In this document: positions 4,824 to 11,027 of the stretch, piece after piece
Numbering within the stretch: the stretch's first letter is position 1
Layout: each line of letters begins with the position of its first letter
Source of the DNA: a virus
Strand: one strand, 5' to 3'
UHGV virus genome: UHGV-0335080
Length of the DNA: 34,923 nt
Notes under the pieces: generated by a model
Databases searched by the model: none
Seen by the model: the letters and a program-made list of their open reading frames with translations, nothing else
Told to the model about the DNA's origin: nothing
Made by a program: the position numbers and the translations under genes

Positions 4824-5124
4824 TGGTTGCCTCCTTTGCCGGGATTTCTAACTTTTGAGTGGTTGTATCAAATTCAAACAACTTAACCACGTCATCAAAC
4901 AGGACATAATCACCATCAGGATCTTCAGTCATATCTGCGCCACAATCCTGACCGCACGAGTCGCAACCATCCATATCAAGCTCGTATCGCTTCAGGTTTG
5001 CGATATTTGATAAATTCAGCGCCAGTACAGCCAGGTCATAAACCTCTTCGGCAGTGACATCGCTGTTCAGTCCCATTTCATGGCGATATATGATTTTTTC
5101 TACTCGTTGTTTTGTGATCGTCAT
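4810..5124 (-). CDS. Hypothetical acidic protein (104 aa) with CxxC..C cluster
   Basis: Track ORF 4810..5148 trimmed to MTITKQ...; DGCDSCGQDCGAD motif; overlaps upstream gene 3' end. Confidence 0.5.
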   Translation of the reverse strand: MTITKQRVEKIIYRHEMGLNSDVTAEEVYDLAVLALNLSNIANLKRYELDMDGCDSCGQDCGADMTEDPDGDYVLFDDVVKLFEFDTTTQKLEIPAKEATSEQD

Positions 5125-5272
5125 TTTTCTCTTCACTCCGATATACAAGGATTACCACACCCCCTCTGCTGATTGCGCGAGCTGGATCCCCTGGTTCCAT
5201 GCCGTCAATTCCGAAGGCTTCGGAAAACGCATTCATTGCCTTCTGGCGTTCATCCTGCTTACGGCGTTTATT

Positions 5273-5395
5273 CTATTTTTTCAGGAACAACAGCGACAGC
5301 CACCGTCCGCTGCAGAACACGATGTAAAAATAACCAAGGAGCGCCAGGCCGACATTCAGGGCCGTTTCTATGGTTAGTTGTGAGTCAGTTGCCAT
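5273..5395 (-). CDS. Putative small hydrophobic peptide (40 aa)
   Basis: Hand-translated MATDSQLTIETALNVGLALLGYFYIVFCSGRWLSLLFLKK; overlaps 3' end of upstream wHTH gene; below ORF-track cutoff. Confidence 0.25.
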   Translation of the reverse strand: MATDSQLTIETALNVGLALLGYFYIVFCSGRWLSLLFLKK

Positions 5396-5633
5396 TTCTT
5401 ACCTGTTTAAGTAACTGGTTGAACATAACACTTAGGGGATTGCTGTATCCAAACGGCAGATTGTTTACGCAGTACAGAATCATTTTGTTTTTTTCTCCAG
5501 TTCGTACTATTAACCCATTCCACAATAACCGTGATAATTCATTACTGATAGAAGTTGCGCTTCTTCCAAGTGCGAGGGATATATCTTCTCTACTGCAATC
5601 TGGATTTTCCTGGATATACTCGATAACGGTCAT
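5385..5633 (-). CDS. Small winged-helix-like DNA-binding protein (82 aa)
   Basis: Track ORF 5385..5675 trimmed to MTVIEYIQENPDCSREDISLALGRSATSISNELSRLLWNGLIVR, an HTH/wHTH-like pattern. Confidence 0.5.
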   Translation of the reverse strand: MTVIEYIQENPDCSREDISLALGRSATSISNELSRLLWNGLIVRTGEKNKMILYCVNNLPFGYSNPLSVMFNQLLKQVRNGN

Positions 5634-5643
5634 GTGGTCCCTT

Positions 5644-6225
5644 TTACTTAATATCTGTTTCGGATTGCATGCCATGAGTATTCATTTCGTTAATAATTTC
5701 ATCCAGAAGGATTTCAAGCCCTTCTCGACCCATATCTGAAAGAATGAAACCTTTATCAGGGGAAGTAGTGAGCATTTTCTGATAAAGAAACAGCGCTCTT
5801 CCCATTCCTTCAGCTTCGCCGTATTTTTGAATTAAATTCCATTCAATATACTGTTGTAAGGCAAATCGAATGGGGCCGGGATATATCGTCATAAACCCAT
5901 ACATCCCGTTATATACCACGGCGTGTTCAGTTGTTCCGTGTTCATTCAGGATATCAATTGTGCCGTTCTTGTCTTCTTCTTCGTTGATGAATGTCGTCAC
6001 ATACAACCATCGCCACTGAGCAACCTTCATCTCAACCGGAAGTTTACCCAGTAATCCTGCTTCGTCGGCTTGCGCCAGACACTGAAGGATACGTAAACCT
6101 CGCACATTAGGAGTATCGAATTCTCCGGCATCCAGACGACGTATGGCGTCGTGATAATCAATCGTCATACTGCCAGTTCGTATACCATTGGCTGTTGCTT
6201 CAGCCTGGAATTCATCGTATTGCAT
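5644..6225 (-). CDS. Hypothetical protein (193 aa)
   Basis: Track ORF; GAGGA RBS; no recognised domain. Confidence 0.65.
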   Translation of the reverse strand: MQYDEFQAEATANGIRTGSMTIDYHDAIRRLDAGEFDTPNVRGLRILQCLAQADEAGLLGKLPVEMKVAQWRWLYVTTFINEEEDKNGTIDILNEHGTTEHAVVYNGMYGFMTIYPGPIRFALQQYIEWNLIQKYGEAEGMGRALFLYQKMLTTSPDKGFILSDMGREGLEILLDEIINEMNTHGMQSETDIK

Positions 6226-6230
6226 GATAT

Positions 6231-6413
6231 TTATTCCTCATCTTCATCTGCTGGTGCAATAACGTCATATCCTGCCTTTTCTGCAATAAACAGGAATGTT
6301 GAAAGAGTTCCTACAAGTTCATCGTCATGAACATGGCGAATGAATATTACTTTCCCGTTTTTGATGGTCAGCAATACTCTGGTTTGTTCGTGTTCTGCTG
6401 TTTTCTGATGCAT
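6231..6413 (-). CDS. Hypothetical small acidic protein (60 aa)
   Basis: Track ORF; GGGAGA RBS. Confidence 0.45.
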   Translation of the reverse strand: MHQKTAEHEQTRVLLTIKNGKVIFIRHVHDDELVGTLSTFLFIAEKAGYDVIAPADEDEE

Positions 6414-6607
6414 TATTATCTCCCGTATGCTTTACGCAGAAATAAGCAGGCAATATGCATGTAATTTTCACCGTATTGTGCAATAAGGCAGGCGGTCTTG
6501 TGTGATGCCATATTCTTTATAAAAGTCACAATAAAGCCTCCTGTGGATTAAGGTTGTAACAATCCCCGGCGATAAAACCGCAATAAACGTTCAGGGCATA
6601 TTTGTTG

Positions 6608-6973
6608 TTATTGCGCTAATTCTTTTTCGGCAGCAGCTTTTGTATACTCACATGCAAAATTCAGAATTTCGCTGCCGAGTGTTTTCGTTTCGTGATTACT
6701 GGACATATGTAATACCTGTGTTGCATGCAATAAATGATAAACATTTACCGCAAATGAATCAGGCTCCAGGCAAATGCCTTCGTAATTATCTTGCTGTGAG
6801 GTTGTTTCTGTCATTGCTCCTGAAGTGCATACGAGCCTGTTTTTGACAATTCTCTTTTCTCTAATCACTATATCGGCAACATCTATTGCCTTTACAACCT
6901 CCGGGAGAAGTTCCGGGTTTGTATAATCAAAGTCATCAACATGGAGAACAGTTATGTTTTCGAACTTTTTCAT
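6608..6973 (-). CDS. Hypothetical protein (121 aa)
   Basis: Track ORF; GAGGA RBS 4 nt upstream of ATG; separated from neighbours by intergenic gaps, unlike the coupled operon to its left. Confidence 0.6.
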   Translation of the reverse strand: MKKFENITVLHVDDFDYTNPELLPEVVKAIDVADIVIREKRIVKNRLVCTSGAMTETTSQQDNYEGICLEPDSFAVNVYHLLHATQVLHMSSNHETKTLGSEILNFACEYTKAAAEKELAQ

Positions 6974-7101
6974 GGTTTCCTCAGCTGACTTATATGTTCT
7001 GCTATATAGCGAGTCTCAGAAGTGTTTTCATATTAAGACTGTTTCCGCAATGATTGATAAAAATGTTCGCATGTACCTTGAGGGGCGAAGCGGCGATTAT
7101 G

Positions 7102-7605
7102 TCACCATTGGTATTGGTTCTTCCGTAGAAGAGCTTCGCGAGATAAGGGGCAAACTTGTTGAGATGCGTCATGGTGTTGCTGCTCCTCACTTTTTGGTTG
7201 CTCCGGAGGAGTAACCTCACCAGTTAACAGCCACATCGCATCGCAGCCAAGAATATTTGCCAGTGGGATAAGCATACTGATAGTTGGTTCATACTCTCCG
7301 CTCTCCCACTGGATGATAATTTCTTCATCGAGATCGAGCAGCCTGGCGAGTTCGGCGGTTGTTAAGCCGCAGGCTTCGCGTTGGGTGCGAAGACGGTTGT
7401 TGATTGCAGAATTTTTGTTCTGTAAAAGCATTGCTGACGATAGCTTTCTGGATATGCTATTTGTCATATCCCATGCCAGTCCTGCGCATGACTCTATATC
7501 GCTAGAGAGCGTAGCATCAGGTGTTGCTTTTGCTATTAGTGTAATGAGGCTGCCGAGGTTTTTCAGTTCTTCGAGACAGTCAAGAGTTGTAGCTTTATTG
7601 ATCAT
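7102..7605 (-). CDS. HTH (XRE-family) domain protein, 167 aa, first gene downstream of cI
   Basis: Central HTH motif (LRTQREACGLTTAELARLLDLDEEIIIQWESGEYEPTISMLIPLANILGCDAMWLLTGE); GAGGT RBS; start overlapped by operator-like inverted repeat. Confidence 0.7.
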   Translation of the reverse strand: MINKATTLDCLEELKNLGSLITLIAKATPDATLSSDIESCAGLAWDMTNSISRKLSSAMLLQNKNSAINNRLRTQREACGLTTAELARLLDLDEEIIIQWESGEYEPTISMLIPLANILGCDAMWLLTGEVTPPEQPKSEEQQHHDASQQVCPLSREALLRKNQYQW

Positions 7606-7610
7606 GAGAT

Positions 7611-7690
7611 GATACCTCAGTTACGAACTTTGTTTTATGGTAACTAAGGTATCAAGGCGTGGCAAGTAATTTTTGATACTTTGGTTTCTT
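7611..7690. promoter_or_regulatory. Operator-like site cluster (OL-like) downstream of cI, with candidate leftward promoter
   Basis: TGATACCTCAGTTAC (7611-7625) and its inverted copy GTAACTAAGGTATCA (7642-7656), plus TGATACTTTGGTTTC (7676-7690); possible TTGCCA-N17-TACCAT on minus strand. Confidence 0.4.
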
Positions 7691-7708
7691 TTTGTGTTTT
7701 GTGTCTGG

Positions 7709-8365
7709 TCAGAAAATATCCCATCTGGCATCAACCACAACACCTACTATTTCGCAATCATTGTCCATTTCTATGATTGGATATTGTGGATTAAGGGGCT
7801 TTAGAAACGCCTTTCCCATGTCAGAAATATATTTTTTGAATGTTGCTTCATTGGTGGATTTTTTTCTGGCGATGACGTAACACCCTGAAAAAACTTCTTT
7901 ATCTGGGTTGACAAGGATCGACATTCCTTCAGGAAATGTTATTCCTACGGGCGAAGTCATTGAGTCTCCGTGCACTTCCAGCCAGAACCCCCTCTCACCA
8001 GCGTATTTTACAGAATGCCTCCAATTATCCTGATCATACATGTTGTAGTCATCACCAGAAGTTGCGAATAATCCTGCCTGAACCCAGTTAATTACAGGGT
8101 AAGAGTGTGCTGTGTCTCTCTGTGGGCAGCTCTTAACATTATTTTCCCAATGCTTATCTTTTTCATCTCCGTTCTGAAGCCACTGCGGTGAACACCGCAG
8201 TGCAGCTGCAACTTTAAAAAGGGTGTCACCGTTGAAACTTTTTGTAAGGCCTTGCTCGGCTTTACTTATTGCAACTCTGGTGACCCCAGCTTTTTTAGCC
8301 AACGCATCTTGTGTTAACCCAGCTTTTTGCCGTGCGTTGATGAGACGTTCACCTAAAGACTTCAT
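7709..8365 (-). CDS. cI: CI-like prophage repressor: N-terminal HTH plus C-terminal LexA-like S24 autopeptidase domain
   Basis: HTH_XRE motif (LTQDALAKKAGVTRVAISKAEQG); Ala-Gly candidate cleavage site (VQAGL); Ser in GDSM and downstream Lys (ARKK); GAGGAG RBS; track ORF trimmed to MKSLGERL. Confidence 0.9.
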   Translation of the reverse strand: MKSLGERLINARQKAGLTQDALAKKAGVTRVAISKAEQGLTKSFNGDTLFKVAAALRCSPQWLQNGDEKDKHWENNVKSCPQRDTAHSYPVINWVQAGLFATSGDDYNMYDQDNWRHSVKYAGERGFWLEVHGDSMTSPVGITFPEGMSILVNPDKEVFSGCYVIARKKSTNEATFKKYISDMGKAFLKPLNPQYPIIEMDNDCEIVGVVVDARWDIF

Positions 8366-8386
8366 TTTTCTTCTCCTCTCATGGCT

Positions 8387-8462
8387 GTTGATACTAAAGT
8401 AACAGAATTTCTTGATACTTTGGGTTCCTGTGGTTAACATCGTTGGATAACAAAGTATCTGG
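8387..8462. promoter_or_regulatory. Operator-like site cluster (OR-like) between cI and rightward genes, with candidate PR
   Basis: TGATACTAAAGTAAC (8391-8405), TGATACTTTGGGTTC (8414-8428), inverted AGATACTTTGTTATC (8446-8460); TTGATA-N17-TAACAT rightward promoter-like at 8412-8439. Confidence 0.45.
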
Positions 8463-8476
8463 TGTGAGACTAAAGA

Positions 8477-8704
8477 ATGACCCTTTATGAAATATTAAAA
8501 ATTCAATTTAAAACCAATGCCGCTATTGGTCGCAGGTTCCCAAAGAAAGGAAGGCCTCGTGGCAGTCAAGGTGTTGGAAAGTGGAAAACGCGAGGTGTTC
8601 CGGAGGATGTTGCCATTCTTTGTCATCTGGATCCGAGCATTCCATATACACACCCAAGTCTAGCGAATACAGAAGATGACAAGCCCACAGGAGACCAACA
8701 ATGA
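8477..8704 (+). CDS. Uncertain small basic ORF (75 aa) in the Cro position; may be noncoding
   Basis: Stop overlaps Rha start (ATGA), but weak RBS, no HTH and low-complexity basic composition; an alternative 48-codon ORF exists in another frame. Confidence 0.25.
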   Translation: MTLYEILKIQFKTNAAIGRRFPKKGRPRGSQGVGKWKTRGVPEDVAILCHLDPSIPYTHPSLANTEDDKPTGDQQ

Positions 8705-9408
8705 ACACCGCAATTTTTAACGGCAAAGCATCCATGACCAGCGTTGAGATCGCAGAGCTGGTGGGAAGCCGACCAGATAGTGTTAAGAGAACTATTGAAA
8801 CACTGGCTAAAAAGGGAATCATCCAATTTCCACAGACTGTGGAAATTGAGAATAAACAATCACTTGGGCCTCGCCGATTTTCTAGCGCGTATGTATTCGA
8901 AGGTGAACGAGGTAAGCGCGACAGCATCATTGTCGTCGCACAGCTCTGTCCTGAATTCACAGCTCGCCTGGTAGATCGCTGGCGCGAACTGGAAGAACAG
9001 ATCCGTAAGCCAATGAGCGAAATCGAAATGGTTGCCGCGATGGCTCTTGAAGCCGTTCGCCAACAGAAACGGATCACTCAGGTGGAAGAAAAAGTCAGCC
9101 ACGTTGCTGAAACAGTCGAGCAAATTAAAAAGGGCACTATTCGTGAGGGCTATGCCGGATATCGCCAACTGAAAGCAAAAACCGGTTTGTCAGATGATAA
9201 ATGCCGCAATCTGGTGAACGCCTATCAAATTCCTACAGACACACATGAGTTCATGACGCCGGACGGATTGTTGTCACGTCGCGCAATTGTTGCTGTGGAA
9301 CCGTTTATGGCTGCTTTTTATCGGGTTATGGAGGAAGCAGAACCGCGAGGGACTCGCTGGTATCACCCGAAAATGGGGTTATTTCAGGTTATTGGTTGGC
9401 AGCGGTGA
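8701..9408 (+). CDS. rha: Rha-family phage regulatory / antirepressor-like protein
   Basis: N-terminal motif MTSVEIAELVGSRPDSVKRTIETLAKKG typical of Phage_pRha; GGAGACC RBS. Confidence 0.7.
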   Translation: MNTAIFNGKASMTSVEIAELVGSRPDSVKRTIETLAKKGIIQFPQTVEIENKQSLGPRRFSSAYVFEGERGKRDSIIVVAQLCPEFTARLVDRWRELEEQIRKPMSEIEMVAAMALEAVRQQKRITQVEEKVSHVAETVEQIKKGTIREGYAGYRQLKAKTGLSDDKCRNLVNAYQIPTDTHEFMTPDGLLSRRAIVAVEPFMAAFYRVMEEAEPRGTRWYHPKMGLFQVIGWQR

Positions 9409-9435
9409 AAAAAAGCCGGGAGTAACCCGGCTCAC
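9409..9435 (-). terminator. Possible intrinsic terminator in minus-strand orientation
   Basis: GCCGGG-agtaa-CCCGGC hairpin (9415-9431) preceded on the plus strand by A7, i.e. followed by U7 on the minus strand. Confidence 0.3.
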
Positions 9436-9516
9436 TCAACATCAATAACGGGGAGCTGTTTCGCATAAAACGGCTCCGAAACATCCAAGAACAGTTCTAA
9501 AGATATCAGCAGCTAT

Positions 9517-10179
9517 ATGATCATTTCAAGACCAAATATTGATTCTGCAATTTCGGGACGTTACACTGTCTCCGCACCTTATAAAGCGGGTGCCGGGATT
9601 GGCGTCCTGAAATTGTCAACGGCGATGTATGACGCGCCAGCGTCTTTTTTATCGTCCGCATTTGCTCACATCCAGATTATGGTGGGCTGGGCGGGGGCAC
9701 CGAAAGGTGCGCCGGTCTCCGTTGACGCCGGTTACGCCAACCCCGTCCAGTTCACCACCAGTGAAATTGGCGTTTCCGGTGGTGGAAGTTTTTCACTGTC
9801 AACGGAGGCTGCCATCATGGCTACTGTCCTAACTTCCCCATTCCTAAAAATCGAAGTCGTCAACGGCAAGGCCGTTATTTTCTCCCTGCATGTTGCCTGC
9901 CATTTCAAGCGCATGCACCAGAACATCGTTGACAAAATCGAGTATCTGAACTGCTCACGCGAGTTTTTTACCCGCAATTTCATACCGGGTACTTATCACA
10001 TCTACGGTGACTCCCTGCGTGGTTATTACATCACCCTTGATGGTCTGATGATGCTTCAGCTTGGGTTAAGTCTGCGCACAATGCGGTACTACGAGAGCTG
10101 TATTGAAGCATTCCATGAGGCTGAAACCGTCCAGGGTCACTCCGCGTTCCGTCGTAATCAACGGGAGGTGCACCTATGA
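9517..10179 (+). CDS. Rha-domain protein with unrecognised Gly-rich N-terminal domain (220 aa)
   Basis: C-terminal Rha-like segment (KIEVVNGKAVIFSLHVACHFKRMHQNIVDKIEYL...); N-terminal about 100 aa paralogous to next gene. Confidence 0.65.
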   Translation: MIISRPNIDSAISGRYTVSAPYKAGAGIGVLKLSTAMYDAPASFLSSAFAHIQIMVGWAGAPKGAPVSVDAGYANPVQFTTSEIGVSGGGSFSLSTEAAIMATVLTSPFLKIEVVNGKAVIFSLHVACHFKRMHQNIVDKIEYLNCSREFFTRNFIPGTYHIYGDSLRGYYITLDGLMMLQLGLSLRTMRYYESCIEAFHEAETVQGHSAFRRNQREVHL

Positions 10180-11027
10180 TCCGCCACCAGCATATTGATT
10201 CTGCAATTCCGGGACGTTACACTGCTCAGGCACCTTATAAAGCGGGTGCCGGGCGTGGAAACCCGAAATTCAATATAGAGCACAACCGCGCTCATGCGGT
10301 TTTTTCGTGTCATGAGCATCGTTACACCCAAATTATGGTGGGGCGTGCAGGGCCAACTTCGGTTGGGCCGGGTTCTATGTTGACCGGTATTTCCACCCCT
10401 GTACGTCTCACCACCTATATGGTCGTGGAAAGCCTTGGTGGTGAGTTCATTGAATTCAACATAGGGGCTGTCACCATGACTACTCTCCCAACCCAATCTC
10501 ACCCTGAAATCACGATTATCAATGGTCGCGTTGTCACCACATCTCTTGCAGTAGCTAATTACTTTACTAAACGGCATGAGCGGGTTTTAGATAGAATTAG
10601 AAACCTCGAATGTTCCGCTGAATTTACTGAACACAATTTTGTGTTAAGTGAATACACCGACGCATCAGGCCGCAAACTCCCTTGTTACCAAATCACCCGC
10701 GACGGTTTTGCGTTTCTTGCCATGGGCTTCACTGGTAAACGTGCTGCCCAGTTCAAAGAGGCATACATCAACGCCTTTAACCTGATGGAGAAGAGTTTAT
10801 CAGGTGCCGATGCGTCTGATATGTCAGCTGTCGCACGAAACGCCAGAGGCGTATACCTGCATTTGCGTGAAATCCATCAAATCTGGACAAGCCAGCTTTA
10901 TCCAATGCTTAAGGCCGTTGAATCTCCGCTGGCTAGCAAACTGTACGACCGTGTTGGTGATGCTGTTTTTGGCGCTGCACTTGTTGATTCCAGGCTGAAT
11001 GGTTCTGACAAGGAGGTTCGCCCATGA
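10176..11027 (+). CDS. Rha-domain protein, paralog of upstream gene (283 aa)
   Basis: Rha-like segment (ITIINGRVVTTSLAVANYFTKRHERVLDRIRNLECSAEF...YQITRDGFAFLAMGFTGKRAAQFKEAYINAF); shared N-terminal domain; ATGA-coupled start with GGAGGTG RBS. Confidence 0.7.
   Translation: MIRHQHIDSAIPGRYTAQAPYKAGAGRGNPKFNIEHNRAHAVFSCHEHRYTQIMVGRAGPTSVGPGSMLTGISTPVRLTTYMVVESLGGEFIEFNIGAVTMTTLPTQSHPEITIINGRVVTTSLAVANYFTKRHERVLDRIRNLECSAEFTEHNFVLSEYTDASGRKLPCYQITRDGFAFLAMGFTGKRAAQFKEAYINAFNLMEKSLSGADASDMSAVARNARGVYLHLREIHQIWTSQLYPMLKAVESPLASKLYDRVGDAVFGAALVDSRLNGSDKEVRP

Follow-up and report, generated by a model that had tools for sequence, protein, structure and literature searches.

The viral genome UHGV-0335080 was analysed over its full length of 34,923 nucleotides (nt), referred to here as the window, and belongs to the group of phages that includes phiP27, Stx1_14040 and PhiR49_2, with which it shares gene order and 88-99% nucleotide identity. 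Directly downstream of its cI repressor gene, on the minus strand, lies a block (6231-7605) of three open reading frames (ORFs) for proteins of 167 (7102-7605), 121 (6608-6973) and 60 amino acids (aa; 6231-6413), the first of which is a helix-turn-helix (HTH) protein of the XRE type. With a probability of roughly 0.6 we read this block as the promoter-proximal part of an early-left operon under CI control in a phiP27-like lambdoid prophage of E. coli, with an early regulator at its head, and not as a defence island; judged from the sequence, the most likely role of the 167 aa protein is that of a CI-repressed early transcription regulator. A first-pass annotation had placed the three ORFs at these coordinates, on this strand and next to cI, and had described their products as uncharacterised, all of which was found to hold. 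It had also likened the block to the rexAB position of phage lambda. In lambda the rexAB genes lie between cI and the left operator (OL) and are co-transcribed with cI. The likeness fails in the window, where three operator copies and a promoter-like site separate cI from the 167 aa gene, and relatives carry in this interval a hairpin that by eye resembles a terminator and a consensus-like promoter. Because operators and promoter stand between cI and the gene, the 167 aa gene appears to be the first of an operon of the left promoter (PL) type, at the position of lambda N, and should therefore be repressed in the lysogen.

The cI gene (7709-8365, minus strand) encodes a 218 aa protein with an HTH_3 domain (E 2e-14) and a Peptidase_S24 domain (E 4.2e-22) in Pfam. 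Mechanically its ORF reaches 8440, and its likely start is the ATG at 8365, preceded by an AGGAG ribosome-binding site; a relative with 99.8% identity over 6231-7708 has the same 657 nt coding sequence, to which PGAP gives the name "LexA family protein". The operator motif TGATACYTNNGKT has four exact copies in the window, every one flanking cI, and with at most one mismatch there are eight copies against 1.4 expected, a number reached in 0 of 100 shuffles. Two looser copies in the spacer between cI and cro (8388-8403 and 8445-8459) bring the total to three on each side of cI. In the OL/PL-like region (7606-7708, minus strand) the copies are found at 7610-7624, over the Shine-Dalgarno sequence of the 167 aa gene, at 7640-7654, spanning spacer and -10 box of a PL-like site, and at 7673-7688, just upstream of its -35 box (minus strand, -35 TTGCCA at 7665-7660, 17 nt spacer, -10 TACCAT at 7642-7637). 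The first two copies form the inverted repeat which the first-pass annotation had seen at the ribosome-binding site of the 167 aa gene: its arms (7610-7624 and 7640-7654) are 15 nt each, 93% complementary and 15 nt apart, and one of them covers the GAGG Shine-Dalgarno. The repressor-linked control that had been proposed from this repeat is supported by the layout of operators and promoter. In the OR-like region on the other side of cI (8366-8476), defined by repeat families D2, D4, I1, I3, I8 and I10, a promoter scan and a motif search, the copies lie at 8388-8403, 8411-8427 and 8445-8459; two of them overlap a PR-like promoter on the plus strand (-35 TTGATA from 8412, 17 nt, -10 TAACAT to 8440), which faces a cro-like gene at 8477-8704, and the third lies towards cI. 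Operators of one type, three and three, are in this way found on either side of cI, overlapping promoter-like hexamers that point outwards, as in a PL operon.

The same OL/PL layout is present in phiP27 and Stx1_14040. In phages of the PhiR49_2 type the spacer from cI to the HTH gene holds a hairpin, rich in GC and with a run of T (AACGGGCTTTGCCCGTTTTTTT), judged by eye to be the cI terminator, and a consensus-like promoter, TTGACA-17-TAATAT; the repeats of this spacer (ATCAA...TTGAT / ACTTGAT) recur in the cI-cro spacer of the same phage. A third immunity type has its own hairpin with T-run, followed by TTGACA-17-TATTAT. The operator motif switches with the immunity type on both flanks of cI together.

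The 167, 121 and 60 aa proteins are homologues of L10, L08 and L07 of phiP27 (NC_003356). Nucleotide identity of the window is 88% to phiP27, 89% to the Stx1a phages and 99.3% to PhiR49_2 over 5300-7392. Two scans of IMG/VR gave 163 related loci, 150 of which had at least 2.5 kb downstream and were used for the downstream counts. The HTH gene directly follows a cI-like gene on the same strand in all 163, and it is followed by L08 in 141, by a small ORF of 37 aa in 150, by L07 in 150 and by L06 in 127 of the 150 loci. The order HTH gene, L08, 37 aa ORF, L07 is kept across seven clusters of the N-terminal part (the head) of the HTH protein and six clusters of cI. The block genes are by this measure conserved core early genes. 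That this is the case for the other two ORFs had been named beforehand as an outcome speaking in part against a role in exclusion or defence, and such conservation of order does not fit with independently acquired cassettes. The intergenic gaps from which cassettes had been proposed are only partly empty, the one at 6414-6607 containing the 37 aa ORF and the one at 6974-7101 lying mostly under an opposite-strand ORF and a near-invariant segment of 96 nt. Part or all of the block is present in 380 of 5426 complete E. coli genomes, with at least 80% of it in 128 of those, and more than 1000 contigs carry related HTH alleles, many of these being in Shiga toxin (Stx)-converting and other pathogen-associated prophages.

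Base composition was a further argument of the first-pass annotation. The G+C content of the block (0.423) is indeed below that of the replication genes (0.523) and of the structural genes (0.554), but the low value is not specific to the block, because cI (0.432) and the entire early-left arm (0.453) are similarly AT-rich.

The 167 aa protein (phrog_4739) is composed of a head (about residues 1-70), an HTH domain (about 72-128) and a tail (about 131-167). HTH_3 (PF01381) matches residues 72-126 with an E value of 1.3e-10 and 41.6 bits against a Pfam cutoff of 23, and Pfam is blank on both flanking segments, in agreement with the earlier description of an HTH with unrecognised flanks. The AlphaFold2 model (mean predicted local distance difference test score, pLDDT, of 76.4) has a helix at residues 7-27 and a long helix at 31-78 which continues into a five-helix HTH; residues 131-167 are disordered (pLDDT below 50 for 133-149) and are overlapped by the opposite-strand gene. 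The modelled HTH superposes on P22 C2, 434 Cro and C.AhdI with target TM-scores of 0.84-0.92, and both the profile score above the cutoff and the five-helix fold of repressor DNA-binding domains place the protein in the HTH_3 family. A Foldseek search with the whole model returned HTH domains only and no match for the head. With the P22 C2 and 434 Cro/cI domains the protein shares the fold over about residues 65-128 (target TM-scores 0.86-0.92, root-mean-square deviation 0.8-1.4 Å, 30% identity). It differs from them in having, in place of a C-terminal S24 domain, a helical module at the N-terminus as its presumed means of dimerisation or partner binding, in that most L10-type alleles carry tandem HTHs, and in that its gene lies in an apparently repressed operon and not at the switch.

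The homologues are modular. Their heads of 60-100 residues fall into at least seven clusters, some of them without detectable mutual similarity, and across 52 homologues 15 columns of the HTH are invariant and 27 nearly so. In most alleles the first, nearly invariant HTH is followed by a second one in tandem, which is most like that of P22 C2 (E 8e-9), and the single-HTH form of the window looks like the product of a deletion between the two repeats. The C-terminal tail is truncated or missing in many alleles; we have taken residues 131-167 as a dispensable extension because the overlapping opposite-strand ORF is taken as a real gene. In some database homologues (P0017, 200 aa, and P0104, 215 aa) the HTH continues into the other minus-strand frame at 7002-7220 (SNQKVRSSNTMTHLNKF...), which ends near L08, a pattern suggestive of frameshifted variants, or else of sequencing errors, where HTH and tail join (7102-7220).

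Head type and cI type are linked nearly one-to-one over the 163 loci (65, 42+17, 17, 10, 10 and 1 loci), and the homology of the window to PhiR49_2 breaks off at 7392/7393, about residue 71, which is the head/HTH junction. From this linkage of seven head clusters to six cI clusters, from the position of the breakpoint, and from heads that are unrelated or very diverged next to an HTH that is more than 90% conserved, one could propose that the protein is an immunity-specific component of the switch: its variable head would recognise the CI or Cro of the same phage, or DNA complexes of these, and the protein, produced once PL is freed from repression, would act as an anti-repressor or a co-regulator that locks the lytic decision or tunes lysogenisation. 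We consider this rather doubtful. The linkage may be no more than hitch-hiking, as the part coding for the head lies up against OL/PL and recombination would find its nearest conserved DNA in the HTH coding sequence, and the S24 domain of cI already provides for RecA-dependent induction.

The HTH protein has been annotated under the names 'transcriptional regulator', 'putative CII repressor' and 'DicA'. The DicA model of NCBIfam (NF007257) scores 47.5 bits against a cutoff of 101, and in the HTH region only. As to CII, a full Pfam-A scan found no CII family, phrog_4836 'CII-like regulator' is an annotator's label on the same HTH family, and by position the 167 aa gene heads the left operon and is not in the right operon after cro, the place of lambda CII, an activator of PRE and PI. 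An antiterminator of the lambda N type, a small arginine-rich protein that binds RNA and works at nut sites, was likewise dismissed: an HTH_3 domain is present, the head is not arginine-rich, and the Pfam and PHROG scans gave no N family; no search for nut sites was made.

The loci differ in the stretch that separates the HTH gene from L08. Some have no spacer, others have one of 128 bp to about 1390 bp, including lengths of 182-269 bp, and in a further form a replacement of about 575-577 bp carries L09 of phiP27. To judge from this variability the slot is the sole place of the block where the idea of acquired cassettes fits. In two IMG/VR relatives (L014 and L039) the slot holds inserts of about 1.38-1.39 kb, which may be insertion sequences; the slot therefore tolerates disruption. 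Across all spacer variants the 85-96 nt upstream of L08 are almost unchanged (6954-7049 in the window), with 3-9 differences against 55 in the adjoining 156 nt. This segment carries the ribosome-binding site of L08, a palindrome GCTATATAGC (7001-7010) and an inverted repeat AGTCTYA-N15-TGAGACT (7012-7040), and is a candidate regulatory site.

The slot of the window contains on the plus strand a small ORF (phrog_6104, E 4.9e-48) of 54 aa (7050-7214), or of 86 aa if read from the ATG at 6954, which is convergent with the 167 aa ORF and overlaps its last 113 nt. Comparison with diverged alleles of the L086 type gives 55 differences in 156 nt, distributed 13/10/32 over the codon positions of the plus frame, with 23 synonymous versus 17 non-synonymous codon changes, and in the diverged allele none of the three minus-strand frames is free of stop codons. 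Variation among near-identical alleles of the overlap was too low to choose between the two frames. The ORF is intact in 84 of the 163 loci, covering five immunity types, and is annotated as hypothetical in many genomes. On the third-position bias and the PHROG match we take it as a real convergent small gene. Being oppositely oriented it cannot be transcribed from PL, and it could be expressed in the lysogen; the promoter candidates found for it are only weak (TTAAGA-17-GATAAA over its ATG, and TATAAT at 6922-6927 without a -35 box). Against PDB sequences the 54 aa ORF gave a single match (E 0.0035) with no significant stretch, which was dismissed as spurious.

An XRE-type factor beside several conserved small ORFs, one of them counter-oriented, recalls the transcription factor-small ORF (TF-smORF) modules that linear plasmid-like phages carry, where the factor switches on a neighbouring small gene of opposite orientation and the product of this gene inactivates cI (Silpe et al. 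2023, PMC10432266). In these modules the counter-oriented gene lies upstream of the operon of the factor, and they occupy other positions of the genome (PMC10432266). Applied to the block, such an induction or feedback module would have the XRE protein activate a neighbouring small gene (the 54/86 aa gene, the 37 aa ORF or L07), the product of which inactivates CI. The two systems have in common a temperate phage with cI and an XRE-type factor next to small unannotated ORFs, the likeness being one of logic and not of sequence, and L07 has weak matches to the C-terminal parts of PHROG families labelled anti-repressor. The block differs in its place in the genome, in that its counter-oriented ORF converges on the 3' end of the factor gene, and in that this ORF is missing from about half of the loci. 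Its factor appears moreover to be CI-controlled; being itself under CI control it would be no independent input and could supply feedback at most. We regard a module of this kind as unlikely.

Under the early-left operon reading the following course of events may be envisaged. In the lysogen CI would occupy the three OL operators, and the operon would be off because these operators overlap the promoter and the ribosome-binding site of the 167 aa gene. On cleavage of CI, or on infection, PL would fire and the 167 aa XRE-type protein would be made first, followed by L08, the 37 aa protein, L07, L06 and the remaining early-left genes. The 167 aa protein would bind DNA through its HTH, with the head probably serving as an oligomerisation or partner-binding module. 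Because the HTH is near-identical across immunity types, its target should be a sequence common to these phages, and the best candidate, as a guess, is the invariant 96 nt segment just downstream of its own gene.

Several points weigh against this reading. The PL-like promoter of the immunity type of the window is weak (9 of 12 matches, -10 TACCAT). In this type no intrinsic terminator was found after cI, which makes read-through from PRM, the promoter for repressor maintenance, into the block possible in lysogens. The strict linkage of head type and cI type hints at a role tied to immunity, and a plain regulator acting on a conserved site leaves it unexplained. Finally, the inverted repeat of the candidate target occurs once, a search of the window for a second copy having found none.

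Read-through would also be the route by which the block could be expressed in the lysogen as exclusion or defence genes, in a slot for such accessory genes next to cI like that of lambda rexAB, as the first-pass annotation had proposed. AT-richness, the differing content of the slot between the HTH gene and L08, and the presence in it of an oppositely oriented small gene beyond PL transcription may be added on this side. Against it stand the operators and promoter between cI and the block, the GC-rich hairpin with T-run, by eye a cI terminator, which precedes PL in relatives, and the conservation of the genes as a core across immunity types. In the predicted fold of a read-through RNA from cI, furthermore, the inverted operator arms pair and would bury the Shine-Dalgarno of the 167 aa gene. 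PADLOC (PADLOC-DB 2.0) matched only the HTH region of the 167 aa protein, to the RmrA, HTH_VI and capH models, that is as a generic HTH, and had no match for L08, L07 or L06. NCBIfam, run on the three proteins and their neighbours, likewise yielded no more than generic HTH hits. Pfam-A had no match for the 121 or the 60 aa protein, full Pfam-A and PHROG scans gave no rex family for any of the three proteins, and among the ten proteins scanned with Pfam there was no match to rex, N or CII families. A defence function is in our view improbable for the block and most plausible for the plus-strand small gene only.

In an AlphaFold2 model with a mean pLDDT of only 63.6, L08 (phrog_5451; 6608-6973, minus strand) has a small alpha/beta domain at its N-terminus (about residues 1-47), then a linker without order, and at its C-terminus a helical hairpin (74-120); the best match among PDB sequences has an E value of 0.47. 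This hairpin shows homology to the head that a different allele of the HTH protein carries (43% identity, E 1e-9). Comparison of whole alignments of L08 and the HTH protein was uninformative because the heads were misaligned, and it was redone for each head type, giving hhalign probabilities of 97.5-98.4% for the hairpin against heads D and E and of 0.2% against head A, which is that of the window. An exhaustive profile search found that both domains of L08 also serve elsewhere as alternative heads, at the N-terminus of proteins with single, tandem or triple HTHs. These likenesses bring to mind titration of the SinR/SinI kind, in which L08, as a head-type hairpin without HTH, would form mixed oligomers with HTH proteins that have related heads, of its own or of a co-resident phage, and so block them. 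The hairpin and head A of the window do not, however, appear to share an oligomerisation domain, and L08 does not co-vary with the neighbouring head type, being 98% identical in PhiR49_2, whose head is of type D. Titration is accordingly held to be very improbable. In the closest relative PGAP calls only the C-terminal 68 aa of L08, that is the hairpin, from an internal ATG at 6814, and stand-alone 68 aa forms of the hairpin are present in other prophages. A promoter-like site (ATGACA-18-GATAAT, 6814-6785, 10 of 12 matches) is found inside L08.

A composite scheme may be drawn from the variable head, L08 and the convergent gene, although we would call it speculative and rather doubtful. In this scheme the 167 aa protein is a two-part regulator, whose head would be an immunity-specificity module recognising its own CI, Cro or operator complexes, or would serve to escape head-only decoys like L08 of rival prophages, and whose invariant HTH would act on a common site. 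The convergent gene could counteract it by an antisense or collision effect, and together they would form a second decision layer in lambdoid prophages without N. An effect of this kind is known from lambda, where OOP RNA counteracts cII.

Downstream of L08 the 37 aa ORF (6416-6529, minus strand) starts with GTG, has AGGAGG upstream and stops 2 nt before the start of L07. Its 33 distinct alleles are all intact with a common stop, the variable columns are distributed 20/15/27 over the codon positions, and synonymous codon differences (4289) exceed non-synonymous ones (3517). It is not called by PGAP in the closest RefSeq relative. The members of 119 aa that were grouped with it are a clustering artefact, because the sequences are unrelated. 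L07, the acidic 60 aa protein (6231-6413, minus strand), belongs to phrog_340 (E 3.2e-22); its matches to the two families labelled anti-repressor have E values of 5e-6 and 3.5e-4, and its named homologues are all hypothetical proteins of E. coli. L06 (5644-6225, minus strand) starts 5 nt downstream of L07.

In several respects the whole arrangement is that of the lambda early-left operon: the first gene follows the repressor gene immediately and shares its strand, its promoter is overlapped by three operator copies with the same operator on the cro side of cI, and many small accessory genes, one of them Ea22-like, follow before xis and int. It differs in its first gene, which codes here for an XRE-type HTH protein and in lambda for an arginine-rich antiterminator, and no N, CII or CIII family was matched among the proteins scanned here. 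With lambda rexAB the block shares only the neighbourhood of cI and the strand; rexAB is found before OL as seen from cI and shares the cI transcript in the lysogen, while the block is beyond operators and promoter, and in the window there are no rex genes between cI and OL. The genes L10, L08 and L07 of phiP27 have the same order and the same operator type as the block, and homologues are present in Stx1a- and Stx2a-converting phages and in PhiR49_2. Protein identity between window and phiP27 is 98% for cI, 95% for L10 and 96% for L08, while L07 (51%) and L06 (65%) have diverged. L10 of phiP27 is, in distinction to the window, a 138 aa protein with another C-terminus, and the replacement with L09 stands where the window has the 54/86 aa opposite-strand ORF. 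In this group of phages the L10, L08 and L07 genes are annotated as hypothetical or helix-turn-helix, and in the literature on phiP27/L10, the PL operon and XRE proteins of early-left regions no functional study of the block genes was found.

Some observations concern the surroundings of the block. A 96 aa winged-helix (MarR-like) ORF (5385-5675, minus strand) shares 32 nt with the end of L06. In PHROGs it matches phrog_1687 best, a MarR-family transcription regulator (E 1.3e-24), and, weakly, a family that bears the label Ren-like exclusion protein (E 5e-5); it is absent from the PGAP annotation of the closest relative. The neighbouring gene of the DUF4752 family (5078-5395, minus strand) has a premature TAG at 5273-5275, where Trp41 is changed to a stop by a single C-to-T on the plus strand at 5274; it is intact (105 aa) at the same place in two near-identical relatives, Ecol_AZ146 and PhiR49_2. 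On the other side of cI the right operon (8477-11027, plus strand) starts with a basic 75 aa protein in the position of Cro, of the uncharacterised family phrog_4749, and three Rha/Ant/Roi-like proteins lie between it and the replication genes; no PHROG match to a CII-type family was found in the right arm up to the replication genes. An Rfam search of 5200-8800 with E values up to 1 gave no match.

The sequences of the block have been public since phiP27; the block appears to belong to an early-left operon of the lambdoid kind in which a modular XRE-type protein takes the leading place of N. Adjacency to cI is not sufficient to call a defence slot, and the decisive feature is the side of OL on which a gene lies. 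If our reading is true, the early-left programme of these phages begins not with an antiterminator but with a regulator that binds DNA, and what is first made after derepression would be an uncharacterised protein of which the variable half moves together with the immunity region. Cheap tests are possible for the linkage of head and immunity, for L08 as a head-only relative and for the convergent small gene, and these could uncover a further layer of decision. Lambdoid prophages without N are common in pathogenic E. coli, and the role of this protein would bear on the commitment to induction of such prophages, including Stx phages, and on interference between co-resident prophages.

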